Positions 3,664 through 56,082 of a stretch of 64,000 nt of DNA are shown here, piece after piece. Each line of letters starts with the position of its first letter. The first letter of the stretch is position 1. This DNA is from Rhynchopus sp. YZ270_cl-10 (Eukaryota), in NCBI GenBank assembly GCA_964035575.1, contig OZ037836.1, positions 1,240,001-1,304,000 of the forward strand, read 5' to 3'. The notes under the pieces were generated by a model that ran no database searches, was not told the origin of the DNA, and was given only the letters and a program-made list of their open reading frames with translations. The position numbers were made by a program, and so were the translations under genes.

Positions 3664-4155
3664 TTTTGTGTTTTTTGTGTTTTGTGCTGTGGCGTTTATC
3701 GTGGAGAAGGTGTGGACAAGCAAGAAACAAAGAGATAAAAACGGAAGCTGCAATATGCAGACAACCCATTAATGAGCGAACTCAACAGGATGCAGGCACA
3801 ACGTACCCTGCACACAACCAGAAGATGCAGAAAGAAACTGAGGCTTGCCTGCACCACACTGCAATGTGAACCAGACCTGCACATCACCACTCACCACCAC
3901 CAACCCACCTCCCGATGAAGCATCCTGAGCTTGCAGGTAATCCCACCTCCTGCACCACATCGTATTGTGAAGGATCAAGCAAGAAAGAAAGAACTGAGGA
4001 CTCTGAACTTCACAAGGACAACGCAACGAAGAAGAGGGAGAAAAAATCTTCTCTTTTTTTTTGGGTTACAATACTCTAATTGGGGTGTGTGGGGGTATAC
4101 AGGTACACAGGGCCGAACAAAAAAATGATTCTTTTTTTCGCCCGTTTGGTTTTTA

Positions 4156-5212: not shown

Positions 5213-8200
5213 TTACTTTCGGAGCAATGCAGCTGCAGCTTCTATGTCGGCCACTGGAACAGAACGCTGGTAGAACCTGAGGGGGACTGAGGACGTTTTG
5301 GCCTCATGCACTGGGGTGCTTGGCAAATACTTGGGTGTGGCAGAGAGCATCGGTGGTGGCGTCATCGTATGTGCTCGCTCTGTGCCAGACAGCGGCGTGC
5401 TGTAGCTGTTTGCCATCGTCCTGTGGGTTTGCGTTTCGCTTAGCTTTAGGTCCAGCAGCCTGCTCTTGGTTGCCACTTCATTCATCTTCTTCTGCAACTC
5501 CTGCTCCTTAATGAACTGCTCCGTCCTCTGTCTATCCAAATCGCTTCTAGACTTATCCAACTCTAGCTCCTGAATCTGCATTTATTTTTTTCATAATTTT
5601 TTTTTTTTTTGAAATTATTGAAAGCACTTCCGACTGACCCACTTCCGATGACAGCCCCGGATAAAAGAGAAGTACCCTACAGCCAACAGCAAAAGGTATA
5701 AAAAAGAACCCTAATGGCTTGTCCGTAACGAAGGCGGTGCACAACCGCTCGTCAGCTGGCGACCCACCTTCCGCTGAAGAGTTGTGACTTTACGAATACT
5801 CTCATTCGCTTCACCCAACTCTTAGTGAACGATTGTCGAGACAAGAGAGCAAAGGGGGGAATCATAGCATCTCTCTCTTTGCGTCCCATGCTGTACTGAC
5901 AGTGCCTCACCCTTAGGGATTTAAATGGACGTCCTTAGAGCCACCCCGTAACACAAAGGTGTAGCAGAACCGAGGTCCTAGCATTGATATACCCTGTCAG
6001 GGTTTACCTTGCAAACAATAGGCACCCCCGAAACATACCTGCACGACCCTCTCCCTTGCAGCATCGTACTCCTCCCTTCTGCGTGTAGGAGAGGACTGCT
6101 GTGCAACCAACTCTGGGTACACCTCGCCGCCCCAACCCTGTTGTTTTAGTTGTTGTTTTTTTGTGTCGCCAATGACCTGCTAGTGCAGGGTGTACTCAAT
6201 GTCGCCCGAAGGCTAATGTACTTCAAAGATATTGGCGAAAGTCGTCCTTTTATTCGAAACAGCATCGTGGAGGGAAGAGTGGTGGTGCTTAATCTCATAC
6301 CATCCCGCTTCCCGCAAAGCTACGTGGTGAACCACTATTATGATAGGATGGGCTGCTGATATGCCTTTCTTTGCGAAGCGCGGCAGTGTCTTCAAACGCA
6401 CGTACCCTCACGTTTTCTTGCGAGGCTAGAATAGCGAAGATCCGATCCGCAGAATCGGTGACCAACTCACGCTCAGACTCCTCAAGACTTTGCAAGCTTA
6501 GCAACCCATGCAAGATGTGAAACTCATGCATGGTTCGTTTGTTTTGCTTTTTCAATGCACTACGGTTGTCTTCTTCATCTTTGACAAGTCTGGTGATATT
6601 GGAGGAGACTTGATGGTAGAGAATTCCTTGCTGATTACGCAATAGGTCGCACCACTCTAACTCCATCCCATGAAGAAGCTTGGACAGGTTGGTAGGGTAG
6701 AGCTCTGTTTCGAGGTAGATACGATGACGGTGTTCGTCCAGCTGGATTTGATGCATGCCGTGTCGTGAAGCAAGCTCTACGTCCCATCGCCAGCGGTCTT
6801 CCGCCATGATGTATGCTTCCCACTGTGCTTCTTCATCTCGTTTGTATGCTTGGCGTCTGGCGGTTGTGATACGACGCCACTCATGCTCCTCTTCCAGCTC
6901 AATCTGCCCCCTTCTGTAGTCTTCACTCCACTGCCCACCCCCAGAAGCTACCATACCCTGCAGTCTCTCTAATAGCCAGCTCTCGATCCGCGACCGTTCC
7001 AGCTTCTCCCTCCGTGAAATGACCTCATGCCGTTCCCTTAACTCCCACCGCGCCTCCTCAATGAAGCGTACCCGAAACAAATCCGCATTTCCCAACGCGT
7101 ACAACCGTTTCCGCATATCCATCTCCTGAAACACAAGACGCTGCATGGTGCTCTGTGCATCCTGCACCATCTCCTCAAGAAGCCGTCCATAAAAGTCTGT
7201 CAAATAATCCCCCGTTTCCTTATCAAAGCTTGACCGAAAGGAGACATTCACCCGAGAGGTGGCCTGCTCATTAGGCCACAGAGAAGCGCCAGCTGTAGGC
7301 GGATCTGTATAGGAGGGGGTAAAGTCGCTGTGAGGTGCACTGCTATTCCCCTGAAGCGTGCCACGTGGACGGGACACATTGTACTCTGGTGTTGTGAAGG
7401 AGATGTGGTTGTCTGTGCGTACCGAATCGCGTGTTGGGTCCTTCAGCACAGAGGACGGTGAGGTTGCCCCGAAAGGGTTGGATGGGGTGTCCGCTGCTTC
7501 CATGGCAAGTGTCGAGCCAACGTCAACTGCCATCTGGCTGTCAGGTTGTGATATTACCTCTGAAATGGGTGCATCCGGAAGAATCTCTTGTTTCTTAAAA
7601 GGGTTGTTCGAAGCAGAGCTGTCCTGTGTAACCTGGCTGCGGAAGGGGGTAGTCCCTTCTGGGGCCTGGCTGTCTTGCATTTTGAAAGGGTTGTTTGACA
7701 CTCCCTCCGATTTAAACTGGTTTTGAACTGGCGGTGCGTCTGTGTTGGGTTGGCTGTCCTGCTTCTTGAATGGGTTGTTCGATACAGAGCTGTTTTCATT
7801 GCTTTTGAAGGGATTTGGTGGGTTCGGTGTGTCCTGGGAATCCTGCTTTTTGAAAGGGTTGTTCGAAACCGAGACTTCCTGGTCCTGCTTCTTGAAGGGG
7901 TTGCTTGAGAGAGAGCTTTCCGTTTGCCCTCTGAAGGGCGGCGGAGGGGGTTGGCTGTCTTGCTTTCTGAAGCCGCTTGACCCTTCTGATTTGAACTGGT
8001 TTGGTGCGTCTGGAGCGGCCTGGCTGTCTTGCATTTTGAAAGGATTGTTCGACACTCCCTCCGATTTAAACTGGTTTTGAACTGGCGGTGCATCTGTGTT
8101 GGGTTGGCTGTCCTGCTTCTTGAACGGATTGTTCGATACAGCGCTATCTACTGCATTGCTGTTGAAAGGTTGTGATACTGGATTTGAGGGACCCCCACTC

Positions 8201-8373
8201 TGCGAGTTAAACTGCCGCACCGCAGATGGCTGAGGAGGCTCGCTTGTCTGGTTTTGAAGACCGAATTGACTTGCCAAAGCACTCACTCCCGCAGGACCCC
8301 CAGCACCCCCTGTTGCACCACCACTGTGTGTCGAGCCGACCGATTGGCTCTCATATTTTTCCGTGAGTGACAT
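5213..8373 (-). CDS. Multi-exon gene: NPF-repeat / coiled-coil protein of unknown function
   Basis: Large first exon from 8373 to about 6301 with repeated SNNPFKKQD motifs and a Glu/Arg-rich helical region; last exon 5575..5213 after a TGCAG acceptor; small candidate exons near 6138-6039 and 5820-5768; internal splicing not fully resolved. Confidence 0.7.
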
Positions 8374-9124: not shown

Positions 9125-12100
9125 TCACGCCTTCTTGCTCTCCATCAACAGCATGAGTTCGCGTTTCTTCTCTTCAACCTTCTGTGCGAGCAATACTTTA
9201 GCGGAGGCTACAACATTTTGTGCGACACCACGTGTGAAAAATCTGTGAGAGAGCGAGAGAGAGATATTCAGTGGATCAACAAGTTACAAATTTACATTAA
9301 ATAATGGTTATGGTTGTTGATGCAGGCATCTCCAACTGACTGTACGATGTCAGCCATCCGGATGCAAGTCCCAGTACCCTGCAGTTAACAGAATGTGTAA
9401 ATAAGACACTGTACACAAAAAAGATCTCTCATGACAACAAGAGATAAATAAACTTTGTCTAAAAAAAGCTATTTACAGATTTCTCTGGATTTGAACGGCA
9501 TTTGGCCTGTTTATCATTTTTGTAGTTTACACAAAAAATTGCTCCCAAAATGTGCTATATATTTTTGTACAGAGACAACTTTAAAAGAACCTGAGCACAA
9601 CAGGAACACTGCAAACGCGAGGGGGATTTTTTTTTGCATACTTTGCGGCTGGGTTTTCTCGTCCATTTTTGGACCCCCCTTGCTTGACCCTCAAGAAGAG
9701 AGTTTCAGGGTCGGCATTCGCGATTGACTGCACAGTTTTGTAGCCAGCACTGAACAGACAGCGTCCTCGCCCAGCCTGAACACCGGCGATCTCGGCGAGA
9801 TGTGCACAGTCGGCCTTCATTCCACAGCCAAGCCGTTTAACATACGACTGGATGGTCACCTGGAGGGACGTCCACCCGTTGCTCTCTGTGAAGTTCACCA
9901 TCATATTGCAGAAGATCGCTGCGTTGAACTGCAACTTTTGGATTTGGCCCTGTAAGGAAGGAAAGAGGGATTACGCTCCACATCCCACAACGTGTATTTC
10001 AACACGTTAATTGGGTTTTTTTTTTTTTTTTTTTTTTTTTTTGAAAAAAATGGGAGGGAAATACAAAATCTTAAGAAGAACCTCAAAGATGCATGTCTCT
10101 TGACGTCCTTTATGGAGAAAGGAAATAGCAAATATAGATTGTATCGAGGGGGTGATGCCATACCCTTTCACAAGAAAACTTCTTAGAAACCACTGCGACG
10201 GGCATTTCTGAGAGCAGGTCGGAGAGGATCAGCGCACACCAGAAGCGGCGGCACTTGTATTCATCTCTGCAGCCTTTGTTGCGTTGTTTGTCGCTTTGCT
10301 CGCATTTGACGAGGACATAGGGCTCGCTTATGCCGATCATTGTCGCTATCTGTCGTGGTATCGCCTTCATATTTGCTAGCAGATGCGCTAAGGTACGCCA
10401 GTTGATGCTCCACGTCTCTGCATCCTTGATAGGTGTCAGGTAGTACAGCATGTGAAGGTCGTGGCCGAGGATGACACCGTTGTCTTGCATGTGCTTCAAC
10501 TCCTCCTTCAGGAGACGTGCCTCATTAAGGGTAAACCCTGATTTAAAGACCGAAGCACCAAAAGGGGAGATCTGCAGTGGCATTGCTTCAGGGCGGTCTT
10601 CGTGGCTGTCGTCTGCACGGCCAACGATTCTTTCTCCGATCATTGCATAGAGTTTTTGTTGGTGTGCGTCCTTGTATGCGAGGACAGAGTCGTTGTCTTC
10701 GGCCACGTGGTCTTGCTGGGGGTAGAGCATGCGCTCTGCATAGGAGATGAGCTCGGAGTAGCATTTCGCAACACCGGTTGCCATGGCGTCGAGGACCATG
10801 CCCTCAATGGAGGCTGGCGCGTTGCTTTTGCTTGTGAGTGGTTCGATCTCGGACCGCATGAGCTCCTGGGAGCGGTGGAAGTCGTTGTCTCTGCACAGCA
10901 GGTACGCCTCACCATTAGAGTCAAACCCAGCCCGACCTGCACGACCGCACATCTGAAGGTATTTGGATTTGTCAAGGTGGCTGATCCCGACGTACGGATA
11001 CCGTATGATCACCCGCCGTGCAGGAAGGTTGACCCCCGCCGCAAGCGTGCTGGTGCAGCACAGCACGCAGATGACCTTGCGTTTGTACGCTTCTTCAATG
11101 AGGACGCGCTCCTCCCCCAGCATGCCTGCATGATGATACGCAATGCCCGCACGCAGGAAGACCTCAAAGTCGGCATCAAGACTGCCACTCACAACACCCT
11201 TCATCTCCGTCGCCAGCGCTTCGCGTGCATATTCATTGTGGGTGCGCGCCTCTTCAGAGACAAGACCTGCAAGCACCTTACACATCCGCTGGCACTCCTT
11301 CTTGCTCGGACAAAACACAAGACAACACCCAGACGGAACAACCTCGTTCACCAGAAGCGCAACCTTCTTGTCGTCGTGCTTAGTAAGAGGCAACGTCCGA
11401 GCGGTTTCGCCATCACCTTTGAGAACCATAGTACACTCCTTAGTGTCCTTAAGAAGAAAGCACTCAAGGGTAACAGGACGGAAGTCTGACACATAAAGCT
11501 CTGCATCCAGCCACCGTGCCAGCAGCGGAAGGTTTGGTAGGGTTGCACTCATGCCAACAATCTGGCAGGCAGGGATGGTGACGCAGATCTTGGTCAGAAG
11601 CATTTCGAGGATAGGTCCACGGCCAGGCTCGCCTATCATATGCAGCTCGTCTGCCACGACGCAGCCAATCTCCTTAGTGCGGCCCTCTGCAGCCATTTTG
11701 TTTACGAGAGAGTTTGCCTTTTCGATGGTGCAGATGGCGATAAAGCGTTTCCCCGCAATGGGCACCTGGCTCAACTCCCCTGCGCAGGCTGTGAGCTCAA
11801 AGCCCAGCGCCTTTGTGTAGGGTTCGAGGGCTGCCATCTTTTCGTCTACAAGCGCAACAAAAGGCATCACCAAAATCCCCGAGCGCTGTGCGGCCACTGC
11901 ACGAAGGAGAAGCACCTCGGCCACAAGACTCTTCCCGCCACTGGTGGGGAGTGAGAAGACGAGGTTCCCGCCACGGCACACCTTGGGCAGGGCCAGCACC
12001 TCCACCTGCCAGTCGTACATACGTGTGATGCCACGCTTTGCAAAGATCTGCCGCACGGATTCGGGGAACCCTGCCAACGGGTCTGCTGGGTCTGCCCCAG

Positions 12101-13814
12101 GCGGCACCACAGGCACTGTTGCCACCTCTGTGGACAGCATTGCGGGTGGTAGTGGTGGTGGTTGTGGTGTTGTGCTGTCGGCAGGTGAGGACGAGGATGA
12201 GGGTGCAGGTGTCACAGGGGTCACAGGGTTGACAAAGAGCTGTGGGACACGCTTTCCAACCACAGGGCGCACCCAGGTGGTGGGTGGGCTCGTCTGTTGT
12301 AGGGCGCTGTCGTCCATGGTGGCAGGGGAGTGGGTCTGGACGTCGCTTGCTGGCGCCTGCGGCTGTTGTGGTTGTGGCTGTGGCGGTTGCTGTGGCTGTA
12401 GTTGGTATGGTTGTGGTTGTGGCTGTGGCTGTGGCACTGCAGCAGGGACAGGGACAACCTTTGTGACAAATGGGACAGGCTTGGCGGAGGGCTTCTTCTT
12501 TACGTCGCACCGCACGTCGACTGCAGGTGGGAGTACCGGCTGCCGCACGCACGCCTCTGCCTTGGGCGATCGCGATGCACTGCGCGACCCAGCACTGGAG
12601 CTGGGGTTGCGGAAGGGGACAGGCTTGCGTCGTGCTGCAGCACTGGCGCTGGCTGCGGTAGTGGCACTGCCACCACCACTGCTGCAGGCACGCTCCTCCT
12701 TGTCCTGCTCCTTGTCCTCCCTCCTCGGCGGGGGAGCACTTCTATTGACAAAGGGAACAGGCTTCGCACCCTTCGGCCGTGCAGGGTCAGGGCTGGCGCC
12801 GCTCTGCACAAAAGGGACCGGCACCTTGCGGATCTCGGGGGAGGTTCGTGTACGTGGGGGCACACCCACACCTTCGGGGCTGGGGTACGCACCCATGCCC
12901 ATCCCTTCGGGGCTGGTGTGCACACCTGCGCCTGCACCTGCGCATTCGGGGCTGTACGCAGCTGCACCCATACTCCCCACACCTTCAGGGGTAACGTGTG
13001 CTCCCACACCGCCCACACTGCCTACTCGTTCAGAACTGTACGTAGTTGCACCCATGCCGACACCTTCAGGACTGTGGGTAACGTATGTGTTCATACCACC
13101 GACACCTTCAGGACTGTTGTACGCACCCATACCCACACCCATGCCCATACCCATACCCAGATACTCGAGGTGTGCATCTGGGAGCACCACAGCAGTGTTC
13201 ACATCAACAAGCGACATGTCTGCCTCAGGCACATGCTGCTGTGTGAGATACTGACCAGGAGCCGCAGCAAGCAGTGCGTTGCTGTTGGCAAGCTCGTCGG
13301 CAGCACAGGGCATCTCCTGCGAGAGCATCGCGAGGGGCGGCGTCTTGCCTGCCTCCATGTTCTCCTCTTCCTCCACGTCCTCCGCTGCCCATGTGGTGTG
13401 GGCCTTTTGTGGCGACACGCCTTCGTCGAAAATAGCACCGTCGTTGACGGGGACGGCGTACCCATGAGACTCTGCCGGCTCTTCGTAGAAAGGATAGGGC
13501 TGCTGCCTTGGGGGTGACAGGTGTGGCGAGAGAGAGAGAGACTGCTGCAGAGGTTGCTCTATGTGCTGTGGTGCAACACCTGCCAGGCTGTCCATGATGC
13601 CACCACTGCTGTGCACCTTCGTGGCGCCCATGCCCATGGTGCTCACACCTGCAGGCATGCCAGGTGCATTGCGCCCAAACAGAAGCGGCACTGCGGGTGC
13701 ACGCTGGTCTCGCACAGCCTTCACACGCTTTGCAGGCGGTGCTGCGGTGACTGCGCTCCCCGCACGCCGTCTCTTCAAGGTAAAGTCGGACGGCATGCCG
13801 TTCACACATGACAT
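9125..13814 (-). CDS. HELQ: HELQ/POLQ-type Ski2-like DNA helicase with no polymerase domain; 3 exons: 13814-10164, 9949-9642, 9242-9125
   Basis: Motifs LPTSGGKSLVAE, VADELHM, GMSAT, CTSTLAAGVNLPARRVII, QMCGRAGRAGFD; GT-AG introns (AGG|GTATGG...TTACAG|GGC and AA|GTATGC...CACAG|ATT) keep frame and give an HhH region plus the C-terminus VAQNVVASAKVLLAQKVEEKKREL...KKA*. Confidence 0.85.
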
Positions 13815-14940: not shown

Positions 14941-15371
14941 ACAACCACTAAACTCTTCCCTCCCATCCCCTCCCATTGACGTACCAACCCACAGATGTAT
15001 CTTCGGATTGTAAGATGAAAAGAAGTCCCTCTGTGCTGAATCACCGGGGGGAAAAGGAGCTCTCGCAGATGCTCGGCGTACGTTTGGCCACAAAGAGGAC
15101 CACCGCACTTCCTAGAGTCTGCTCCTCTCGTGCTGAGGTGTGCTGCTGTTTTGTGTCAGAGTGAGCTGAGTAATGTTTGTCATCAGAGTCGATCAAGCTA
15201 ACAGGAAACGTTGAAAAGGTTTGTCATCACGTCTCGGGGAAATGGAAGTTGGAAACAGCACAGACAGGTCTCTTGCCAAGGTTGACAGGCAGATGTGAGG
15301 GAGTTACCCAAATGACCGCCAGAGGACCTTGTCCTCAATCAAATGATATGGTGCTATCCGGGGGGCGGCGT

Positions 15372-15730
15372 TTCACAAAGTTTCACAAAATTTCAATCAA
15401 AATCACAACTTTTCACAACTTTTCACAACTATTCACAACTTTTCACAACTTTCACAACTTTTCACAATTTTCAATCAAAATCACAACTTTTCACAACTAT
15501 TCACAACTTTTCACAAAATTCCACAAAATTTCAATCAAAATCACAACTTTTCACAACGTTTCACACGTAAAGGCTCAAGAGGGTTGTGAAAACTTGTGAA
15601 AACTTGTGAAGAGTTGTGAAGAGTTGTGAAGAGTTGTGAAGAGTTGTGAAGAGTTGTGAAGAGTTGTGAAGAGTTGTGAAGAGTTGTGAAGAGTTGTGAA
15701 GAGTTGTGAAGAGTTGTGAAGAGTTGTGAA
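15372..15730. repeat. Inverted pair of 10-bp arrays (TTTTCACAAC)n / (GAGTTGTGAA)n, left subterminal region
   Basis: Read directly; orientation switches near 15565-15583. Confidence 0.95.
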
Positions 15731-18104
15731 GACATGAGGGTTTTTTTAGCTTGCATCTCGGTCTTATGAGCTGTAACGATGGTGCAGAGTGTGTAGCCCG
15801 TCCATCAGCAGCAGGGGAGACAGCAAACGTCTACTAGGACGCCAGGGCAAACGACCCTTCGTCGTCAATGCTTGAACATCAGCTCTGTGCAGGTGCTGTG
15901 CATCTCCTACTTCCAGCGAGTCCGCCGGCTCCATCGCCTCCAGCAGCTTCAGTCTCTGCATCTTCTTCTGGTACATCCAAAAGAACAGTAGGCAGATTCG
16001 CGGACACGAAACCTGTAAGAGGTGGTGGTTGTTTAAAAGATTATCCAAATAATGTAATCAATTGGTGTGCAATTCCCCGTGGTTCTACCGTGTTTCTACC
16101 AGTTGTTGTCACTCCGTAAAGGGGGGGGTAGAGATGCTGGAATTTTAATTCTGCTACTTGAGTTAAATAAATTTGTACACAGTGACCCTACCCGTAAACC
16201 CGAAAAACTTCCCAAAAAACTCGCCTACTCGCCCAAAACCAGGGATATTGCTAACTTTCGGGATTTTGGGATTTCGTGGGGCGATGGTCGAAAAAAGGGG
16301 GGGGAGTGCGGACTTTTTTTTCCAGTCGATCCCGGGCGCGCTTCGCGCGCCCGGTCCCCACCTTAGCTCAAGTTGGGGGCCTCCGGCGGAATGTATGAAT
16401 TCCGTGGTTGTCCAACTGCGGAGTTCGGCACTTCAATGATATTTACACCAGGCAGACGGGGCACACGAATTATCAGTAACCTCAGTACATTTACAAAAGA
16501 AACGGCGGTCGTGGTACCCAAAGGTTCCTGGCGAAGCCACGGTACGCAACATTCCTAAAATTTGGCTTAAATTTGCACATTTTTACTGCCAAACTCTGTC
16601 ATGGGAAGGGTGGGTTGCAAGCTTGCGCCGCAGGCGCACGGTACGCTACTTTTTGTCTTTCGCCATGCTGCATGCTTCCTTTTCCTTCGGCGCTTGACCA
16701 ATTGCATAGTACCATAGTACACTAGTTACCGTGGGGCGATGGTGCGATGGTTTATGGAAAGGGGGGGAACCCCAAATTCAGTGGGGCGATGGTCGATGGT
16801 TAGCAATATCCCTGGCCCAAAACTCGCCCATTTTTGGGGGGCGAGTTTTGGCGAGTTTTTTTTTTTTGGTAGGGATTTTACCTTGGGAAAAGTGTACAAA
16901 CAAAACTATGAGGGAAATTTGAGTTTTGAAGAGAGAATTTTTTTCGTTCCGCTTGAACAAGACCTCTACAGTTTGCTTTGTAGGCTTCCACAACCCGTAA
17001 ACCCGTCCAGCTGTAGGTTCTGCAGATCCATGAAGCTTGCACAGATGGGTGCGATGTAGTCGTGGGGGAATACCGCCAAGGGGTGGCCTGCAGTGTTGCC
17101 ATTTACCGGCATGGCGAGGGCATTGTTGTATAGCGAGTGTAGCCTCGGTTCATCCATGTCTTCGTCATCCTCCGGATTGTAGCACGTCTTGTCCCCCGGT
17201 ATCTGTATGGCACAGCCACTGTTACATTCCTAGAGATGAAAGAACAAGACAACACTTCTGTACCCACGCATCAAAATTGTGGAAAACTTTGCACCCCAAA
17301 ACACCTCAACAACGCCCGCCAAAAGGCGCCCCTTGTTGCTGGGAGTTGGTTTTCATGTTTGATACCTGCATAGCGGGCATTCCTCTGAGTCCAATGCTGT
17401 TGGCCTGTCTGCGGCGTTGCACCGAAGGTGCAGGAAGACAGGGTCTGTGGTAATTTTTGCGGTGTCGCATTCCCTCATGCGTGGGTCACTCACACTTGAG
17501 GTCATGTGACACTGCGTGGGTCTGGGTACCTGGGTACGTGGGTACATGTGACCACGTGTGACTTGTCACACCTGTGCGCAAAAAATCGCAAAAACCCGAA
17601 ACGCGAATCGCAAAAAATCGCATTGCGAATTTTTCGCATTTTTTTTCCGATTTTTCCTGGTTTGCGAATTTCGTAGCAGAATACAACCCGGATCACCCCA
17701 CTTTCAGGTGATTTCTGCACTTTTGGGGTCAATGCGTGCACAAACTGGCTTCCGGAACCCTAAAACCAAAAATCCCCAAAAAATGCCCACAAAGTAAAAA
17801 TGAAGCCCACCCCATTTTGCGTACTTGTTGCGCAGTTGTTGCGTACTTGGTATTCTTTATTTCTGGGGTACCAATATTAATAAGGCACGGTATAGATTTG
17901 ATGAGGTTGGCGCTTTGATAGCCATTTGAGTTGTTTTGGGGAAGTACATACCATAAATCACACATTGTCGCGGAAGGGCTCAGCCGTGTTCAGTCAAAAT
18001 CGGCGCGTCCTGTGGTTACAATAAGCTCTGTCGTGTTCCCACCGTGACCACTACCCATGCCAACCCCCCTTCAGAAAGCCCCTATAAAAATCAAAAAACG
18101 GGCT

Positions 18105-18500
18105 CACAAAATTTCAATCAAAATCACAACTTTTCACAACTATTCACAACTTTTCACAACTTTTCACAAAGTTTCGCAAAATTTCAATCAAAATCACAAC
18201 TTTTCACAACTATTCACAACTTTTCACAACTATTCACAACTTTCACAACTTTTCACAATTTTCAAACAAAATCACAACTTTTCACAACTTTTCACAAAAT
18301 TTCAAACAAAATCACAACTTTTCACAACGTTTCACAACTTTTCACAACATACAGTTGTGAAAAGTTGTGAAAAGTTGTGAAAAGTTGTGAAACGTTGTGA
18401 AAAGTTGTGCAAAGTTGTGAAATGTTGCGAAACGTTGTGACACGTTGTGCATAGGATTGAAATTGTGTGATATTTTGTGAAAATTTGTGAAACTTTGTGA
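18105..18500. repeat. Inverted pair of 10-bp arrays (TTTTCACAAC)n / (AAGTTGTGAA)n, right subterminal region
   Basis: Read directly; orientation switches near 18350. Confidence 0.95.
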
Positions 18501-18748
18501 AACGCCGCCCCCCGGATAGCACCATGATACCTTCTTCTTTCAGGTTGGGGAGGGAGGTGATAAAAACGCTGCATAAACTCTCGAGGGAGGTGGGAATGTC
18601 TTGTTTTGTCTGTTTTGTGTTGCGACTGAAAAACAGGGAAAAGAAAGAAAACTTGAAAGATGTACCGCAACACGTCTTCACCACCATCGCATGAGGGAAC
18701 AAGAAAAAGGCGGACAAAACCCGCAAACCCAATTCAATCCACGTCCAT

Positions 18749-19832
18749 TCAACCCTTTTTAACCCTCTTGCCAGGACGCACAACAGCGGTGTCCCTCTTC
18801 ACTCGTGGCGTCTGTTCCTCCTCACCTTCATCCTCGCTGCACGCAGGCGAACCCTTGCTCTCTGCGAACCCTGCTTCCCTTTCCTCAGAGGGCTCTGTGT
18901 CTGCATGAAGACGCTTCCACCTCACCCTTCTTTCTGCACGGTTGCGGGGTCGGGCACGTTGTCAGTCTCGCATCTCAGACCGTGAATCGCGTTTGTCGGT
19001 AAACCCACTCCTTTCGCAAGCAACCTCCTCACAACCAGAGCGTCCTTGCTCAACCCTGAGGCATCGATTGTTGTTAACTCGAAGCAGTATAAGAAGAAGT
19101 CCTTCCCAATACTCCTGACCCCGCTCAACGCAGACAGGCCATCGACGACTTGCAAGCACGAGCCATCCCCAAAGAAGCCCTCCCCAACGGTAACGACACT
19201 CCTCAACCCCGAAAGACAAACTCTCTTCAACGACGAGCAGCCGTAAAGAAAGTGGTCACCTATTTCGGTGACATTGCTCAACCCCGAGAGGTCCACGGAC
19301 GTCAAATGCTTGCAGTAGCTAAGAAAATACCCCTCAATCACAGTCACGCGGCGAAACACAGAGAGGTCAACCGTTCGCAATGCAGAGTCGGCAAAAAATC
19401 CTTGGCCTATTTTAGTGACACTGCCGAACCCCGACAGGTTGATGCTCTCCAATCGCCCGACGCTGTTGATGAAGTGATCTCCAATCACAGTCACATTGCA
19501 CAACCCTGAAAGGTCAAGCTCTGTCAACTCCGTGCACCAGTTCAGGAAGCCATTCCCTATTTCGGTGACAACCGACACAGCACTAAGGTCAAGTCGCGTT
19601 AACTCACTGACTTGCAAGAACTCATCAGGAATCTCAGTCGCAACCTCCGCCTCCAAAAGCAAACGCGCAACGTCCGGATTCTTCACAGTCGCCAACCTCT
19701 CTTTTGTCAGGTCTGTCTCGCCCAATGCGTGAAGTGCTGCAATGGCAGCAAACTTCGTTGTCCTCACGAGCATAATCGTGTCCCCAGCACTCAGCTCCTT
19801 GATGCCCTCCTCTTCACGCAGCACCTCCCCTC
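18749..19832 (-). pseudogene. UBL-LRR subfamily A copy, 5'-truncated and frameshifted near its 3' end
   Basis: Matches 2443..3663 up to 19832, where RT sequence takes over; a 1-nt deletion near 18920 gives an early stop (ORF 18922..19824). Confidence 0.85.
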
Positions 19833-22471
19833 GTCAACCTTGTCTTTGCCCATAGCCGATATACCGCCGACATCACGGAAATTGGTCGGTGGTCGAGTGG
19901 TTGTGGGTCCTCCACCTTGGCGATCATGCTCACGGTCGCGTGGAGGAGAGCTTCTGGCCATATGCCCGTCTCTTCTACTTGGTTGAGGATTGATGCCAGC
20001 CTGTCGAAGATCCCCGTTGGGAGAAGCGCAAGTTCTTCTGGGTGCCAGCCGTCTGTGCTGGGGGCCTTCCCCTTCGGCATGCTCTCGGCCACGGCTTTCA
20101 GCATCCTTCCGGTGAGGGGTTCTACGTGCATCGGCCGTTGAGGTATGTGTGTGCCAAACCTTTCCTCGAACGCTTCCCACGTGGGTGTGTCACTCAGGGT
20201 GTTGTGCTTTTGGAGTATGGGAAGCCATGCCTCACGCAACCACGTGTCCATGTCCTCCACATTCGCGGTCTCTTCCGTCCCGCGCTTCATCGTGTTGCAC
20301 CGCACTTTGGCTCCGTTGAGGCGCTTGTAGATAAGCCCTGGTGTGGTGTGCCATTGCGTGCGTATCATACGATATCTTTGCGTGGCCCTGTCCCTCTCCA
20401 GGTTCTTTCTGGCAGTTTCGAGTCTCTGGTGCAGGCGCTGTATCAGCTCCAGTGTCGTGCTGGCCTGCGGCTCCTCCTCTGGGGTAGCGTCGAGAATGCT
20501 CACCAGCCCTGCCTTCGCTTTGTCCCACGCCTTGCGTGCGCTGGGTGTGAGGGCTCCTTTGGTGCGTAGAGTGTTGCCGACCTCTGTTAGTCTGCGGATC
20601 GTCTTCCGGATGCGCGTCATCTTGAGGGTCTCTCCTGCGTCGCCTTCGCGAGACTGTCTGCTGCACAGCCAGGTGCGTCGAAGTTTGGGTGGTCGGCCTT
20701 TGCGGAAACATGCTGCTGAGTTGTCGTCTCCCTGCCGTGCCCAGAAGTTGGTCGCATCCTCATTCCATGCTTTCCACTTGTCCTCTACCAATGTGCTTGT
20801 GTGCCATTGTGCTTTGGAACCATCGCAGATCTCTTCAGCCTCCTTTTCCAGGTCTGCCTTCGTTTTCTTCCTGCTCAGTTCATCCTGTTGTAGCATAGGG
20901 GCCCTTTCCTGCTTGAGCACACGCTGCCTGAACGTCATATTCTCAAATGTCGCGTCCAGGGGGATGTGTGAAGGTATTCCGGCCGTCCCCGTTTTGCACC
21001 CTGCCAGCGCAAGCACCGCAATCTGGTTGGCCAGGATGATGTCAATTCGTGAGCACACACTTTTGGCTTCAGACTTTGTGCTCTTACCGATGTGGGTGTG
21101 CTCTGGCTCTTGGTTGGCCCAGCCCGCGGCTCGTTCGGCACAGTCCGTCCATCGTTCTGAGCTGATGGCTAGGGATATTGCTTCGCTTGAGCTGGGTTCT
21201 GGGTGGCTGTTGCAATCCCCGAGGATAATCGCTGGTACGTCCCCTATCTCTGCTTCTGCAAATACATCCGATAGGAAGCTCTCGCGCTCTTGCTTTGCTT
21301 GCGGGGAGTTGCCGACTTTCGCGTATATCACGAATAGGTGTAGAAAATGGTTCCCTGCCCCATGTGCCACCTTTGCGTGCAGGTAACGCTTTGAGTCCCA
21401 GAGTCTCTTTGCTCGTTCAGTATCTCTCCTGACCACACTTGCTGGTATGCCTCGTTTCACCATTAGGCCCACCCCCTTGTGTTCTCCGTAGCTCTGTTGT
21501 ATTGCGTTTGGAAGTAACTTTACTGGGCACCCCCAGAGACCTGTCCAGCCTTGTTCATACAGCGTTCGGGAAGCTTGGGCCTGTTTCTTCTGTGTGAGCC
21601 GGGTCTCCTGCAGTGCGACTATGTCGTTGTCCCAACTCCACACCTCCTCCTGGTGAGCATTCATTGAGGTGATGTTGGCAGTACGTATGGACAGGTTTGG
21701 AGTGGCCCGGGCAGCGCGGCGTCGCTTTCTCTCCGTCTTGGTACGTTTCCGTGAGCGAGACACTGCGATATTCGTGTCCAGGTTCTCCAGCGTGACACAG
21801 CGGTTGCCCTCTGCCTGCGTCGTTGCAATCAGCGACAACAGCCCCTCGGTTGCTTTGAGGCGGTCGAAGTGCTCGGGCCTGTACGTGAGCACAACTGGGT
21901 TCGATGTAGGTGGTCCGCCGACGTGGCTAAACCGTTTCGCTCTGGCATCCAGTACCCAGATGGCCCTGTCGAGTATGCTTGCCGCAGTCTGTAGCTCACG
22001 TTCTCCACCGTACGTTCCTTGCATTCTCATTTTGGCTAGGTGTTGCGTGTAGGTGGAAGGTTCGTTTGCCTCAGGAGAGTAGCTGTCAGCATAGAGGTCA
22101 CTGTCGTCGTTTTGCAGTACGTCCACCACCCGTTGTCGCAGTGAGTTCGTTGTCCACCCCTCGCTCTGCTCAGCTATGGCAGAGAATAGGCAGTCCCCGT
22201 CTGGCGCTACTGCTATCCTTGTAGAGTTGATACTGCGGGCTGTTGCGTCCAACCACTCCTTGTGGTCGGTGATGGCCCTCAGTGGGTTCACGGGATTGTC
22301 GTTGTTTTTGGGGTAGGCGCTCCTACCTATCCCCGGTTCTATGTGCGATTCTAAGTACGTATCTAATCTAGTGGGGGGGGTGAGGTGGGGGAGTGGAGGG
22401 GTTGGGTCTAGAATCAAACGAACAGGAGATCGTTGATCTCGTCCGCAATCGCCTTCGACTCCTTCTTCCAC
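19833..22471 (-). CDS. Retrotransposon ORF2: OTU-like cysteine protease + APE endonuclease + start of reverse transcriptase (truncated)
   Basis: OTU: VAPDGDCLFSAI...YGGERELQTAA...EHFDRL; APE: TANITS, VALQETRL, ILGDCN, SRIDIIL, SHIPL; RT: KAPSTDGW, DHRPISVMSAVYRLW; no ATG before the OTU core. Confidence 0.9.
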
Positions 22472-23946
22472 CGCTCCATCTCCTCCGTCCCCTCCGTCAC
22501 CTTTCCCGCCCCCTTTCCCATCTTTCCGCCGTCCTTCGACTTGCCCTTTTTGCGCTGGGGGGGGCCCGACCCGAAGATGTCGTCCATTGTGCTTCCCTTT
22601 CCCGCGCCGGACGACTTTGACCCCTTTTGCTTGTTGGGGGTGGTTGGTGGCGACAGTGTCTCGGTCGCGGTTTTCGGCTTTACCGTCTCGTTGGCCTTCA
22701 CATCACAGTCCTTCGTGTCCTCCGTGGTGCTTTGTTGTTGTTGGAGCGGAGAGGGTGGGTGAGCCGGTTCCGCGTTGGTGGTAGGCTGGAGTAGCCTGAG
22801 GAGGTGGGCCAGGTGCGCGTCCGTCGCCTCCTGTCGTGCCTCCGCTGCACACTGCCGAGCCACCACCGTCGCCAGCGCCGCGTTCATCTCCTCCTGAGCT
22901 TTGTTGTTACTGATAACTGCAGAGAGGATTTGCTCCCGCTGAGCTTCCGCGTTTGTCGCCAGTTCTTCCGCTCTGGTGGCGTGGCTGTCCATCTTGGACA
23001 GTTGGAGCACTTGACGCTCTAGGAGCGCTTCAATGCCCTTGCCCATTTGTAGAAGAGGGGTGGTGATAGAGGTGAGGTCGGCCGGTGTTGCGTTGTGGTT
23101 CTGATGCTGTTGGGGAAGTTGGTGCTGAACTACGCGCTGCATCCATGCCAGCTCCAGCTTCTGTCCCTGTTCGAACAGCTTTTTGCCTCTGTCCGCGCCG
23201 TACTCTGCTACAAATTCTTGGCTGGTGTATTTTACCTTCCTGTTTCTCTCTGTGGGGTCAGGTACCCGTGTAGGAAGCTGTTGGTGGGTGTCTGCTGTGG
23301 TGGTGACGGTGCTGGTATCTCTTGCTACTGCAGGGAGGATTGACACCACTAGGCTCTGCCACTTGACGCTGCTGTGCGGTGGCTGCGTCTCTGCGCGCAC
23401 CACGAGGGTCTTTTCCCCCGTTCTGCCCTTGCTGAGCAGCGTCACCACCCGCGCCCCCTCCCACTTCATCGCCTTCAGTGCCGCGATGCAGTCCTGCTTC
23501 GTTGCGGGGGGAGGAACCGGCCTGAGGTCGAAGAGCTGGGTGGTGGTGTGCGTTGTGGTGCTGTCGGGTATCTCGAACGTGAATGTGGGGGCGTCATCCA
23601 TCGCCTCCGGGGCACCACCGCTGCTACCTCCCCTTAGCCTACCCAGCTCCCACACGTTGCAGTGCGTCCTGCACATCCGGAGCGACTCCTTGTCGCTCAT
23701 GTCCCTCCCGTTGATGGTAAGGCGGTGCACGTCCCTGCGTCCACCTGTCTTCGCGCGCACTGCCGCCTTCAGGTCAGCCACCGAGTCCGTGTCGCTGACG
23801 TCCACTGTCACTGTCTTTCCAGTCAGCGTTCGCACAAAAATCTGCCTTTTTACCTCTTCATTTTCTTCTTCTTTTTGTTCCGAGTCTTTGCCGCAGTCCT
23901 CTGCGTTGCCCGGGGTCACCTCGTGGAGGTGCTCGGTAAAAACCCC
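22414..23946 (-). CDS. Retrotransposon ORF1 with N-terminal ubiquitin-like domain ending RLRGG and a coiled coil
   Basis: RQIFVRTLTGKTVTVDV...LKAAVRAKTG...LGRLRGG (compare ubiquitin MQIFVKTLTGKTITLEV...LRLRGG); heptad Ala/Gln/Glu-rich region; basic C-terminus; start codon undefined. Confidence 0.8.
   Translation of the reverse strand, partial: GVFTEHLHEVTPGNAEDCGKDSEQKEEENEEVKRQIFVRTLTGKTVTVDVSDTDSVADLKAAVRAKTGGRRDVHRLTINGRDMSDKESLRMCRTHCNVWELGRLRGGSSGGAPEAMDDAPTFTFEIPDSTTTHTTTQLFDLRPVPPPATKQDCIAALKAMKWEGARVVTLLSKGRTGEKTLVVRAETQPPHSSVKWQSLVVSILPAVARDTSTVTTTADTHQQLPTRVPDPTERNRKVKYTSQEFVAEYGADRGKKLFEQGQKLELAWMQRVVQHQLPQQHQNHNATPADLTSITTPLLQMGKGIEALLERQVLQLSKMDSHATRAEELATNAEAQREQILSAVISNNKAQEEMNAALATVVARQCAAEARQEATDAHLAHLLRLLQPTTNAEPAHPPSPLQQQQSTTEDTKDCDVKANETVKPKTATETLSPPTTPNKQKGSKSSGAGKGSTMDDIFGSGPPQRKKGKSKDGGKMGKGAGKVTEGTEEMERWKKESKAIADEINDLLFV
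23880..23946 (-). ncRNA. HDV-like self-cleaving ribozyme at the retrotransposon 5' end
   Basis: GGGGTT(P1) TTTA CCGAG(P2) C ACC(P3) TCCACGA(L3) GGT(P3') GACCCC(P1') GG(P1.1) GCAA CGCAG AGGA CTGCG(P4) GCAAA(J4/2, catalytic C) GA CTCGG(P2'); the first G coincides with the insertion junction. Confidence 0.85.
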
Positions 23947-24231
23947 ACTCTCCAACTTCTCGGCTGTGATGTCTGTCACACCCAACGCATGAAGCTCTGC
24001 AATGGCTTCGTACTTCTGCGACTTCTTCGTGAGGATGATTGTGTCACCAGCACTCAGCTGCGTCATGTCCGCTCCTTCTCCCATCGGTTCGCCTCCGAAA
24101 CTCATGCAAAAGCCGTCTTCAGGCAACCCCATTGCAGTCGCCACCTTCCGCCGCATCACCGCAAGTGTATCATCCTCACCCAGCTCGACCGTATGCTTCA
24201 CTCCGTTCAACCCCTTGATAGTCAAATCCAT
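23947..24231 (-). pseudogene. 5' fragment (UBL domain) of a subfamily B UBL-LRR gene interrupted by the retrotransposon
   Basis: MDLTIKGLNGVKHTVELGEDD...AEKLES followed by element sequence; the rest of the gene is absent. Confidence 0.85.
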
Positions 24232-24950: not shown

Positions 24951-25790
24951 TCATTGTGCGTGTCTCCGTCGCTTCTGGCTTTGCTCGGGGGATTCGTCTC
25001 TGCTTCGTTTCGGAAGTGCTTCAACCACAAGCTTACTCAGCTTCTTGTCGTTCCTCACTTCGTTGGACACCACACTGCTGCAGCCGGAAAGGTAAATGCT
25101 CGTCAACGAAGTGCAGTTCGCAGCAAAGTTCGTAGTATTATTGCAAGTCAAACCAATCGACGTCACATTGCTGAGTGGTGATAAATCCAGGGTGGTTAAG
25201 CTGCTGGACTTCGCAAGGAACCACGCGCCAACCTGTGTAACGTTGCTGAGTGGTGACACATCCAGCGTCGTTAAGCTGCTGCAGTTGTAAAGGAAGCCCG
25301 CACCGACCCGCGTCACATTGATCAACCCAGAGAGGTCGATACTTGTCAACGAGGTGCAGTGGTGTAGGAAGCAACCTGCAATGCGAGTCACAATGGACTC
25401 AGCACTGAGATCAAGTCTCGTCAACGAAGTGCGTGACAAGAAGTAACTCGGAATGACAGTCGCAACCTCCGCCTGTAGAAGCAAACACGCCACCTCAGGA
25501 TCTCTCACACTCTTCAACTTCTCGGCTGTGATGTCGGTCACACCCAACGCATGAAGCTCTGCAATGGCTTCTTGCTTCTGCGTCTTCGTGAGGATGATTG
25601 TGTCACCAGCACTCAGCTGCGTCATGTCCGCTCCTTCTCCCATCGGTTCGTCTCCGAAACTCATGCAAAAGCTGTCTTCAGGCAACCCCATTGCAGTCGC
25701 CACCTTCCGCCGCAAGCCCTCCACTGTGTCATCTTCACCCACCTCGACTGTGTGCTGATTCGCTCTGAAATCCTCGAAGTGCACGTCCAT
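24951..25790 (-). CDS. UBL-LRR protein, subfamily B, 5 LRRs, 279 aa
   Basis: Start MDVHFEDF from paralog alignment; tail PKRSRDESPEQSQKRRRHAQ. Confidence 0.85.
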   Translation of the reverse strand: MDVHFEDFRANQHTVEVGEDDTVEGLRRKVATAMGLPEDSFCMSFGDEPMGEGADMTQLSAGDTIILTKTQKQEAIAELHALGVTDITAEKLKSVRDPEVACLLLQAEVATVIPSYFLSRTSLTRLDLSAESIVTRIAGCFLHHCTSLTSIDLSGLINVTRVGAGFLYNCSSLTTLDVSPLSNVTQVGAWFLAKSSSLTTLDLSPLSNVTSIGLTCNNTTNFAANCTSLTSIYLSGCSSVVSNEVRNDKKLSKLVVEALPKRSRDESPEQSQKRRRHAQ

Positions 25791-26651: not shown

Positions 26652-28140
26652 GGGAAAACAAACTTTTCGTCTGCGTGCGCGTCGGGACGTCCCCCAGAAA
26701 AACCCAGGCAGGCATGCAAAAAAAAGTTTGTTTTAATGGTGTGATTTTCCTAAAAATTAGGTGTAAATTGGGTACTTCTTGGGTCCTTCTTGGGTATAGT
26801 GATTTTCCTTAGGGCACTTCCTTAAGGAAAACGTGATCTTTTTCCCGAGCTTTCCCTGTGGTTAGTAGCCTTGTTTTCGCAAAAATTTTCTCAAAATCCG
26901 GGATTGGCACCCAGTACCCAGTACCCAGTACCCAGTACCCAGTACCCAGTACCCAGTACCCAGTACCCAGTACCCAGTACCCAGTACCCAGTACCCAGTA
27001 CCCAGTACCCAGTACCCAGTACCCAGTACCCAGTACCCAGTACCCAGTACCCAGTACCCAGTACCCAGTACCCAGTACCCAGTACCCAGTACCCAGTACC
27101 CAGTACCCAGTACCCAGTACCCAGTACCCAGTACCCAGTACCCAGTACCCAGTACCCAGTACCCAGTACCCAGTACCCAGTACCCAGTACCCAGTACCCA
27201 GTACCCAGTACCCAGTACCCAGTACCCAGTACCCAGTACCCAGTACCCAGTACCCAGTACCCAGTACCCAGTACCCAGTACCCAGTACCCAGTACCCAGT
27301 ACCCAGTACCCAGTACCCAGTACCCAGTACCCAGTACCCAGTACCCAGTACCCAGTACCCAGTACCCAGTACCCAGTACCCAGTACCCAGTACCCAGTAC
27401 CCAGTACCCAGTACCCAGTACCCAGTACCCAGTACCCAGTACCCAGTACCCAGTACCCAGTACCCAGTACCCAGTACCCAGTACCCAGTACCCAGTACCC
27501 AGTACCCAGTACCCAGTACCCAGTACCCAGTACCCAGTACCCAGTACCCAGTACCCAGTACCCAGTACCCAGTACCCAGTACCCAGTACCCAGTACCCAG
27601 TACCAAAGGGCCGATGGAGGGTTCCGAGACGGCGATAGCCTGCGACACTATGTCATGGGAAGGTGGGATACTAGCTTGCGCCGCAGGCGCACGGTACGCT
27701 ACTTTTATTGTTTCGGCGTATCCTTTTTTCTCACTCTTCGTTGGGTTCCACGAGCTCCGCCCGTCAAATGATGGGGTGTAAAATTCGCATCTACGCAAAC
27801 TGCCCCACGTTCATTTTGTACTTTTCCTTCAGAAGTCAAGTACTGACCATATTTTGCACACAGAACCTGAAAATGGCCTGTAAAAACTGACACATGCATT
27901 TTAGGTCAAAAATACTCATTTCTGAGCGCAAAGTGACCCCATCACAGCACGTACAGGCTCCGGTGCACCGAAATCAAAAAATTTTTTTTTTGATTTTTTG
28001 TGGGGAAAAATTTCTGGGGAAATTTTCTGGCCACAAAAAACCACCAAAAAGATGTACACAAAATAATTTTAGCACCCCCAAAAAAAAAAGGTGTAAAAAA
28101 GGTCCTTCTAAGGTCCTTCTAAGGTATACCACTACCCTTG
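26652..28140. mobile_element. Probable PIF/Harbinger-type non-autonomous element related to 38507-39465, carrying (CCCAGTA)n; right end not resolved
   Basis: Begins TAA|GGGAAAACAAACTTTTCG exactly where similarity to 48481-48490 stops; shares AAAAACC(C/T)AGGCAGGCA, the 25-nt hairpin motif and (inverted) 27890-27950 with 38507-39465. Confidence 0.5.
26910..27602. repeat. (CCCAGTA)n satellite, 99 units
   Basis: Perfect 7-bp tandem array. Confidence 0.98.
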
Positions 28141-36139: not shown

Positions 36140-37013
36140 TACTGTACTGTACTGTACTGTACTGTACTGTACTGTACTGTACTGTACTGTACTGTACTGT
36201 ACTGTACTGTACTGTACTGTACTGTACTGTACTGTACTGTACTGTGCTGTACTGTACTGTACTGTACTGTACTGTACTGTACTGTACTGTACTGTACTGT
36301 ACTGTACTGTACTGTACTGTACTGTACTGTACTGTACTGTACTGTACTGTACTGTACTGTACTGTACTGTACTGTACTGTACTGTACTGTACTGTACTGT
36401 ACTGTACTGTACTGTACTGTACTGTACTGTACTGTACTGTACTGTACTGTACTGTACTGTACTGTACTGTACTGTACTGTACTGTACTGTACTGTACTGT
36501 ACTGTACTGTACTGTACTGTACTGTACTGTACTGTACTGTACTGTACTGTACTGTACTGTACTGTACTGTACTGTACTGTACTGTACTGTACTGTACTGT
36601 ACTGTACTGTACTGTACTGTACTGTACTGTACTGTACTGTACTGTACTGTACTGTACTGTACTGTACTGTACTGTACTGTACTGTACTGTACTGTACTGT
36701 ACTGTACTGTACTGTACTGTACTGTACTGTACTGTACTGTACTGTACTGTACTGTACTGTACTGTACTGTACTGTACTGTACTGTACTGTACTGTACTGT
36801 ACTGTACTGTACTGTACTGTACTGTACTGTACTGTACTGTACTGTACTGTACTGTACTGTACTGTACTGTACTGTACTGTACTGTACTGTACTGTACTGT
36901 ACTGTACTGTACTGTACTGTACTGTACTGTACTGTACTGTACTGTACTGTACTGTACTGTACTGTACTGTACTGTACTGTACTGTACTGTACTGTACTGT
37001 ACTGTACTGTACT
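36140..37013. repeat. (CTGTA)n microsatellite, ~174 units
   Basis: Perfect apart from one CTGTG variant near 36245. Confidence 0.98.
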
Positions 37014-37022: not shown

Positions 37023-37355
37023 CTGTGTATACTGTGTATACTGTGTATACTGTGTATACTGTGTATACTGTGTATACTGTGTATACTGTGTATACTGTGT
37101 ATACTGTGTATACTGTGTATACTGTGTATACTGTGTATACTGTGTATACTGTGTATACTGTGTATACTGTGTATACTGTGTATACTGTGTATACTGTGTA
37201 TACTGTGTATACTGTGTATACTGTGTATACTGTGTATACTGTGTATACTGTGTATACTGTGTATACTGTGTATACTGTGTATACTGTGTATACTGTGTAT
37301 ACTGTGTATACTGTGTATACTGTGTATACTGTGTATACTGTGTATACTGTGTATA
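37023..37355. repeat. (CTGTGTATA)n array, 37 units
   Basis: Perfect 9-bp tandem array. Confidence 0.98.
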
Positions 37356-37913
37356 CTCAGTACTCAGCACCCACTAGCTCTCAGTAAGCTCTCACAGCCT
37401 GTTACGTGTCCCACGGAGACGATCATAGATCACCCAAAGGCGAATAAAAGGCGAATAAAGCGAATAAAAAAGCGAACCAAAAGCGAATAAAGCGAATAAA
37501 GCGAATAAAAAAGCGAACCAAAAGCGAATAAAGCGAACTTTTTATTCGCTTTTTTGGAAAAGCGAATAAAGCGAATTTTTTGTTCGCTTACCATGTATGC
37601 CTAGGGGGACTATAGTCCCCCTAGGTGGACTACATAGTCCCCCTAGGGGGACTCTATAGTCCCCCTAGGGGGACTATGGAGTCCCCCTAATCCGACACCC
37701 CAAAAGAGTAACTCCCCCCCGGGTAGACTCCACCGTGTAGTTGCCTCGGTTGTGTTGCCACAGGTGTGCAATCTCCACTGTTTTTTTCTGTTCCTACAAA
37801 ATGGACACTGGAAATCACTTTGTTGTGCAAAGTCTGGTTCCAACTTTTTCCTTTATTAAAAAGTACCAGTTCTTTGACAAGCCGCGAACCTCTACAAAAA
37901 AGCCCTGGAAAGC

Positions 37914-49051: not shown

Positions 49052-49125
49052 ACGCTGACTCAGTACCATGCGAACACGGCGTCCAGGGGCCCCACTTGGC
49101 GGTTGGTCAGACGTTAATTGCCCCC
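49052..49125 (-). ncRNA. HDV-like ribozyme candidate at the retroposon 5' end
   Basis: GGGGGC(P1) AATTA ACGTCTGAC(P2) CAA CC(P3) GCCAAGT(L3) GG(P3') G GCCCCT(P1', G1-U wobble) GG(P1.1) AC GCCGTG TTCG CATGGT(P4) ACTGA(J4/2) GTCAGCGT(P2'); P3 has only 2 Watson-Crick pairs. Confidence 0.7.
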
Positions 49126-54309: not shown

Positions 54310-54368
54310 TTGTTTGTTGTGGTTTTGTGTTGTGATCTCTGTGTGTGGTGGGGTGTGGAGGACAACAA

Positions 54369-56023: not shown

Positions 56024-56082
56024 GTCTTTGTTGTGGTTTTGTGTTCTGATCTCTGTGTGTGGTGGGGTGTGGAGGACAACAA

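Follow-up and report, generated by a model that had tools for sequence, protein, structure and literature searches.

A likely self-cleaving HDV-type fold at the first base of an OTU-bearing LINE inserted in a UBL-LRR gene of a Rhynchopus species

A stretch of 67 bases on contig OZ037836.1 of Rhynchopus sp. YZ270_cl-10 forms an HDV-type fold at the very first base of a LINE, and we put at roughly three in four the probability that it cleaves itself 5' of the G at 23946 and thereby frees a unit-length element RNA. Positions refer to the 64,000 nucleotides analysed, hereafter the window. Judged from its sequence, the HDV-type fold is real; the speed of any cleavage is a separate matter. By analogy with R2 and L1Tc, and from the sense orientation of all four flanks seen, such cleavage would likely serve to release the element from read-through host transcripts. 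Statements drawn from the cited papers refer to the accessible parts of their text.

The ribozyme fold

The fold and its parts lie as follows:

23880..23946, minus strand: 67-nt fold of the HDV-like ribozyme type, expected to be cut 5' of the G at 23946
23941..23946, minus strand: P1 5' strand, 6 bp with 23912-23917
23931..23936, minus strand: P2 5' strand, pairing with 23880-23884 and 23886; the A at 23885 is bulged
23918..23930, minus strand: P3 helix and L3 loop; two Cs of L3 form P1.1 with 23910-23911
23893..23904, minus strand: P4 hairpin, 4 bp
23887..23891, minus strand: J4/2, with the catalytic-position C at 23890

An earlier note on this DNA had proposed five helices in the canonical nested double-pseudoknot order within 67 nt, leaving out the strand, which is the minus strand read from 23946 to 23880. 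Direct counting bears the arrangement out: P1 has 6 bp (nt 1-6 with 30-35; four G-C, one U-A and one U-G), P2 has five Watson-Crick pairs (11-15 with 63-67) plus C16-G61 across the bulged A62, P3 has 3 bp (17-19 with 27-29), P1.1 has 2 bp (C21 and C22 with G37 and G36), P4 has 4 bp closed by a 4-nt loop, and J1/2 is 4 nt long. The letters that the note had given for L3 (UCCACGA), for the GGGCAAC stretch and for J4/2 (GCAAA) are all present; GGGCAAC is presumably, as the note identified it, the junction of genomic HDV, and the RF02682 consensus at this position reads GGCAAC. The catalytic-position C57 (23890) aligns to J4/2 of RF02682, with the conserved A next to it. Thus, P1, P1.1, P2, P3 and P4 stand in the order of an HDV-like nested double pseudoknot, with P1, P3, P1.1 and J1/2 of sizes within the described ranges of 6–7 bp, 3 bp, 1–2 bp and at least 3 nt, respectively (PMC4908430).

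The Rfam model RF02682 (HDV-F-prausnitzii) matches the stretch end to end with 37.2 bits (E 1.8e-4 for 4 kb, E 0.0029 for the 64-kb window) and is the sole ribozyme family among the 41 rows of the Rfam scan of the window, with a score below the gathering threshold of 44 bits that leaves the stretch outside the family. The fold is accordingly best described as one that is predicted to work like RF02682 but is not filed under it. A custom descriptor, written after the sequence had been seen, has one site on the two strands of the window, whereas 367 dinucleotide-shuffled versions together contain 15 (0.041 per window). Such a model and descriptor search had been proposed in the earlier note, and it yielded the match and the unique site while falling short of the cut-off. 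A chance resemblance within the coding sequence of a chimeric gene model would accord with the open frame across the stretch, the sub-threshold score and the late writing of the descriptor, but this is extremely improbable given an independent Rfam match, the exact position at the junction, and the retention of the fold across lineages with different downstream sequence.

The LINE downstream of the fold

22414..23946, minus strand: frame of element ORF1 (510 codons), free of stops from the ribozyme's first G onward; the earliest in-frame ATG is at 23700
23626..23847, minus strand: leading domain of ORF1, ubiquitin-like, with LRGG as its last residues and 29/76 identity to a canonical ubiquitin unit
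19833..22702, minus strand: element ORF2 frame with OTU, APE and the start of the RT; cut off at 19832-19833
Cys codon 22192 and His codon 21871, minus strand: OTU protease in ORF2
about 21017-21631, minus strand: APE endonuclease in ORF2 (E 8.6e-7)
18922..19832, minus strand: 3' part of a different UBL-LRR paralog, fused to the broken RT

By its encoded domains the element is a non-LTR retrotransposon with an APE followed by an RT: alongside the APE match, homology continues into the RT of whole relatives, which are 27–35% identical to ORF2 over long matches and carry RT and, in some, RNase H and OTU. The named relatives are all diplonemid, belonging to Rhynchopus, Flectonema and three Diplonema species, and point to a diplonemid as the probable host. 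The Cys and His motifs of the OTU are retained in ORF2 and in most of the relatives that were compared. Among 37 matches to the RT region of one relative, P0004, the nearest named are from Diplonema and then Symbiodinium, and none is an ingi/L1Tc protein.

At 19832 the RT is broken and the 3' part of the other UBL-LRR paralog follows, with the 3' end of the element lost and no target-site duplication readable. Among the rows listed no read contig supports this join, X1 and X6 contigs continue past 19832 with other sequence, and an assembly error is possible there. As the RT is cut off, the copy would be unable to move on its own and, on its sequence, is dead as an autonomous element. The earlier note had overlooked this truncation, along with the element's ownership of the ubiquitin domain and the recurrence of the insertion site.

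ORF1 and ORF2 overlap by about 290 bases (22414-22702, minus strand) in a -1 relation, with three in-frame GGGAAAG heptamers (22603, 22519 and 22507). A -1 frameshift is a candidate for the expression of ORF2, although the overlap is rich in Gly-Lys codons. The search with the ORF1 protein recovered its own cluster and three polyubiquitin-type proteins, and neither a ubiquitin nor an ORF1 match occurred among 179 fetched proteins. Viral contigs searched with the ORF1 and ORF2 alignment held no related loci, ORF1 residues 108-300 had no usable Atlas match, and a search on the clade name Ambal found nothing. A single-sequence structure prediction for the first 180 residues of ORF1 after the ribozyme was too poor for use (pLDDT 42.7).

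A second LINE 3' end occupies 61794-64000 on the minus strand of the window and is 99.3% identical to P0004, an OTU-APE-RT-RNase H element that is itself about 27–30% identical to the one studied here. Its end lies some 43 bases before the start codon (ATG) of a further UBL-LRR paralog, with both in the same orientation, placing two sister LINE families in this gene array. Elsewhere, the window carries near-perfect short-unit arrays at 26909-27604 (7-mer x 99), 36140-37013 (5-mer x 175), 37023-37357 (9-mer x 37) and 1-157 (5-mer x 31), which account for several miRNA-model rows of the Rfam scan. At 15371-15732 and 18124-18502 lie two pairs of facing 10-mer arrays (CACAAC-type, then the reverse complement), which form long imperfect inverted repeats, possibly of a MITE-like kind, and a tandem array with a 203-base unit (6.3 copies, 97% alike) spans 47174-48444. 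A 1234-aa ORF at 10110-13814 on the minus strand has the DEAD, Helicase_C and POLQ-helical domains of a HelQ/POLQ-type helicase, whereas no Pfam domain matches the ORFs at 6295-8373 and 40255-42558.

The 5' junction and a recurring host site

23947..24231, minus strand: 5' part (95 codons) of the host UBL-LRR gene, in frame with element ORF1; fusion protein P0185, 605 aa
23946..23958, minus strand: target-like motif common to the flanks seen; present at 9/12 homologous paralog sites and nowhere else in the window
705-3700, 18922-19832, 24951-25790 and 43966-61751, minus strand: UBL-LRR paralog array

The host gene encodes a ubiquitin-like N-terminus followed by LRRs and belongs to a tandem family with 12 homologous sites within the window. 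The array holds at least 12 such paralogs with BspA-type LRRs, all on the minus strand, in two subfamilies that are about 70% alike, with LRR repeats of 75 bases. Likeness to the paralogs stops at 23946, in agreement with the earlier claim that the host gene is broken at the first G of the ribozyme. The claim needs one qualification: at the break 11/11 other paralog sites read T then G, so G1 may come from either side of the junction, and the place of the break has an uncertainty of one base. The further claim that the element is 5'-complete is supported on two grounds, in that the different 17-residue N-terminus of another copy, P0180, meets the same first ribozyme codon, and in that the point where read contigs depart from the window is the first base of the ribozyme or lies a little upstream of it. 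An X3 contig of depth 1871 includes a U at -1, and most copies would therefore likely share it. Short X2 and X3 contigs span the window's own 5' junction without a difference, with fewer than 31 letters a side, the minimum of the tool.

The flanks seen number four, one of them only partly read, and all four fit one codon-boundary site of the UBL-LRR family with the element in sense. The motif derived from these same four flanks has nine matches in the window where 0.44 would be expected, and each of the nine falls at the homologous site of a paralog. One flank resembles the second paralog subfamily (21/27 to that subfamily and 17/27 to the flank in the window, compared by eye), joins one base later and has two unlisted differences; a 16-base motif taken from this unusual flank is absent from the window. 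Two others, one of them that of P0180, match the site for 10–19 bases and then diverge.

Near-identical elements in unlike flanks argue for repeated targeting over duplication, and we regard such targeting as fairly probable on these sequences. The insertion hot spot of ingi/RIME elements in trypanosome RHS genes provides a precedent (PMC7563717). The shared flanks might, conversely, stem from one old insertion spread by segmental duplication or gene conversion, a process to which the host family would lend itself, since its paralog sites, at least 12 in number, stand in tandem and bear marks of rearrangement such as the join at 19832; the flanks are also only four and show no readable target-site duplication. 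Yet the flanks differ far more than the elements within them, as the 17/27 likeness of one flank attests, and the P0180 flank is unrelated beyond about 20 bases while the ORF1 copies differ at one residue in about 500. Spread by duplication is therefore an unlikely account, and repeated targeting is the reading carried forward here.

Other copies and variants

The ORF1 cluster comprises three near-identical members, on contigs that all differ in length: P0185, which is the window's own fusion, P0184 and P0180. Apart from the predicted start of P0184, the latter two each differ from the window at one residue of about 500, and in P0180 a different 17-residue start is joined to the same first ribozyme codon at the same G. 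Further copies were sought in read contigs of 4/10 runs compared with 23770-23975, and the variant counts that follow are those among the matches listed. The ribozyme core reaches depths of 2218 (X1) and 1871 (X3), versus 398 and 374 just downstream, and apparent single places have depths of 126–169. The ratio suggests on the order of 13–17 ribozyme copies, depth being in itself no copy number.

An abundant variant, with a depth of 1640 in X1, follows the window through the ribozyme and for 17 bases more before leaving it at 23863 (X1, X3 and X4); over the 30 letters listed for it the same frame continues without a stop and includes an ATG, as judged by eye. As the depths of the two ORF1 variants add up to roughly that of ORF2 (865–975), this ribozyme-bearing variant likely belongs to another family or is a non-autonomous partner, by analogy with NARTc, the non-autonomous partner of L1Tc (PMC3185411). 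It may possibly be SINE-like. Comparison of these sequences establishes that several copies have the fold in common while differing in their flanks and in what follows downstream.

Another variant has eight differences in 23794-23879 and none in 23880-23907, a contrast that by itself does not reach significance (Fisher p 0.20; binomial 0.065) and whose binomial value falls to 0.009 if the 34/221 variant belongs to the same lineage. The sole variant position inside the ribozyme among those listed, leaving aside a few unlisted differences at contig ends, is 23900 in the P4 loop. The listed copies are too alike to show covariation, and there are no compensatory changes among them.

Competing folds and natural look-alikes

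When pseudoknots are left out of the calculation, folding favours a rival structure in which the 5' end pairs with J4/2-P2, at -23.9 kcal/mol versus -14.3 for P1, P3 and P4 together; such nested-only folding is unable to score the pseudoknot. The fold was therefore set beside natural look-alikes recovered by core-pattern scans (243 loci, 292 matches; the metagenome scan covered 24/64 parts), a set in which the core is common to all by construction. The crude energy gap to the rival fold is ordinary by this standard, being as large in 18/50 look-alikes, and P1 and P2 are both as improbable as here in only 1/50. The P2 with one pair beyond a bulged base recurs in 30/71 and the identical J4/2 letters in 9/71. 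P1 has 7 bp in all fully parsed look-alikes, versus 6 bp here, and their median length is 73.5 nt, with only 5/50 as short as the 67-nt fold. None of 12 distinct core matches with a 6-nt P1, from two collection scans, is a convincing short 6-bp ribozyme. A 7-bp register of P1 starting from U(-1) with a U-G pair is disfavoured, a U-G first pair occurring in 0/71 look-alikes.

None of the look-alike loci adjoins a close relative of the studied LINE. Only L171 and L178 among the scanned loci had weak RT matches (22–27% identity), these being to relatives of the element and not to the window's own ORFs, so that the look-alikes serve as a comparison set alone. Six metagenome loci (L120, L189, L222, L171, L209 and L237) have HDV-like cores with a C-rich P1 3' strand, a long P2, and a P1 5' strand that is distant or unseen; in L120 it lies 184 bases upstream of the core, and L171 carries RT sequence. 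These six are probably R2-like ribozymes with a large J1/2.

A fold that is real and conserved might nonetheless cleave slowly or rarely, with its main job being a 5' structure for the start of translation or for binding the ORF2 protein. The strong competing fold, the shortness of P1, P2 and J1/2, and a reading frame open across the whole fold would all suit this, as would the IRES-like roles proposed for HDV ribozymes of retrotransposons (PMC6765202). It is nevertheless a distinctly improbable account, in that the catalytic C and P1.1 are intact, G1 stands at the junction in more than one copy, and the folding calculation that produced the competitor is blind to the pseudoknot.

A model for release from host transcripts

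With self-cleavage as the preferred reading, the element's cycle may be pictured as follows. Pol II would read through from the host gene cluster, in keeping with the description of Diplonema papillatum genes as likely co-transcribed in groups (PMC10161547), and the RNA would fold while being made. C57 with Mg2+ would then cut the bond that joins U(-1) to G1, so that the element RNA begins with a 5'-OH. Since the ribozyme lies on the element's side of the cut, it would remain on the RNA and be copied into each full-length insertion, so that host sequence is never carried along. Unit-length release by a 5' HDV-like ribozyme has been described for R2 and L1Tc (PMC6765202, PMC3774820, PMC3383444). 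More tentatively, the APE endonuclease may prefer one site of the UBL-LRR family, which would place each copy in sense behind host transcription.

The earlier note went on to conclude that the element needs no promoter of its own, a step that does not follow from the ribozyme, since in L1Tc the same first 77 nt are both promoter and ribozyme (PMC3383444). The 67 bases could be dual in just this manner, acting as a ribozyme once transcribed and, in the DNA, as an internal promoter, making read-through unneeded: Pr77, in a sister group, has both activities and is common to the non-autonomous NARTc (PMC3383444, PMC3185411), and the near-invariance of the 67 bases among variants suits a DNA signal equally as well as a fold. 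We consider this unlikely, as 4/4 flanks are in sense at one kind of site, a pattern that PMC3383444 ties to promoter-less elements like R2, and as the 37 RT-region matches of P0004 include no ingi/L1Tc protein. Given such sense-only, site-restricted insertion, a promoter-less element released from host transcripts is the better guess here, though a guess and not a result.

An ATG-less ubiquitin-like leader

Across the ribozyme a single one of the three frames lacks stops; this frame begins at G1 and is that of ORF1, whose first in-frame ATG (23700) falls inside the ubiquitin-like domain. In the variant with eight changes the frame stays open, four of the changes are synonymous and no ATG is restored. 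An equally good outcome arises in 3.7% of trials with random changes, and 23% of shuffled stretches of like composition are free of stops in any given frame, so the open ATG-less frame is to be taken as a hint only. The fused protein matches Pfam ubiquitin (E 2.9e-16), and the ubiquitin domain after the ribozyme, to go by its sequence context, belongs to the element.

As the target is broken at a codon boundary, insertion into a UBL-LRR gene yields an in-frame fusion of host, ribozyme, ubiquitin and ORF1, and this leads to a reading with two fates for the RNA, in which one host site serves both. Cut RNA would be the template, capped uncut RNA or ATG-less cut RNA would be translated, and clipping after LRGG would free the ORF1 protein; whether a host deubiquitinase or the OTU protease encoded by the element did the clipping, the same protein would result whatever lies upstream. 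In L1Tc a 2A peptide performs a similar job. We offer this as a speculative proposal that is more doubtful than probable. The first Met of ORF2 (22030) comes after the OTU Cys (22192), so that the OTU would need a frameshift or a non-ATG start; the protein searches, including the 179 fetched proteins, found no ubiquitin-led ORF1 outside this cluster; the commonest ribozyme-bearing variant departs before the ubiquitin domain; and the domain itself is diverged.

Relation to known systems and significance

Like the Pr77 of L1Tc/ingi (L1TcRz) in trypanosomatids, the fold is a short, here putative, HDV-like ribozyme at +1 of an APE-RT-RNase H type of LINE (PMC3185411, PMC3383444) in a euglenozoan with polycistronic transcription. 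As in L1Tc with NARTc/RIME, the 5' module is common to elements of other downstream sequence, and, as with ingi/RIME in RHS genes, there is an apparent insertion hot spot in a protein-coding multigene family (PMC7563717). The element differs from L1Tc/ingi in having two ORFs rather than a single APE-RT-RNase H ORF, an OTU before the APE, a ubiquitin-like leader on ORF1 and UBL-LRR in place of RHS genes as the target, besides the lack of ingi/L1Tc proteins among the RT-region matches of P0004.

With the R2 5' ribozyme it would share host co-transcript release, site-specific sense insertion and a proposed role in cap-less translation (PMC3774820, PMC6765202). Unlike this element, R2 inserts in 28S rDNA, and many R2 ribozymes have a long J1/2 and a P1 borrowed from 28S. 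The present fold has a J1/2 of 4 nt and a P1 that the element itself supplies, G1 being the one possible exception, and the endonuclease is an APE. The P3/L3/P1.1/GCAAC core is that of minimal HDV-like ribozymes (RF02682; phage theta) and occurs also in phage and metagenome contigs, although P1 has 6 bp here, as opposed to 7 bp in those parsed, and the fold as a whole is among the shortest. RTE/Baggins elements are likewise APE LINEs, promoter-less ones, freed by a 5' HDV-like ribozyme that possibly starts translation (PMC6765202, citing Ruminski et al. 2011); in contrast to the present case they are animal elements, for which the accessible text of PMC6765202 reports no ubiquitin leader or OTU. 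An OTU has been described in Helentrons (PMC6431247).

Thus, 5' HDV ribozymes are already known from R2, L1Tc and RTE, whereas the 5' cassette as a whole is new, namely the recurring sense site in UBL-LRR genes, the ATG-less ORF1 frame from G1 and the ubiquitin-like start ending in LRGG. A literature search outside subscription journals and Repbase, on a diplonemid ribozyme, a Diplonema retrotransposon and OTU or ubiquitin in non-LTR elements, found no such element; in the D. papillatum genome paper (PMC10161547) the word ribozyme is absent from the main text and seven supplements, and its repeat section may be elsewhere.

With this ribozyme the 5' HDV-like device of R2, L1Tc/ingi and RTE reaches diplonemids, and with them a LINE lineage that carries an OTU. 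If the leader proposal is true, a ubiquitin leader with the element's own protease would be a new route to a defined ORF1 N-terminus that dispenses with a start codon of its own. If the rest holds, the element would offer a small system in which to ask how LINE RNAs without a cap come to be translated after release by a ribozyme, and the UBL-LRR genes would join the trypanosome RHS genes as the second protein-coding family to serve as a retrotransposon hot spot.
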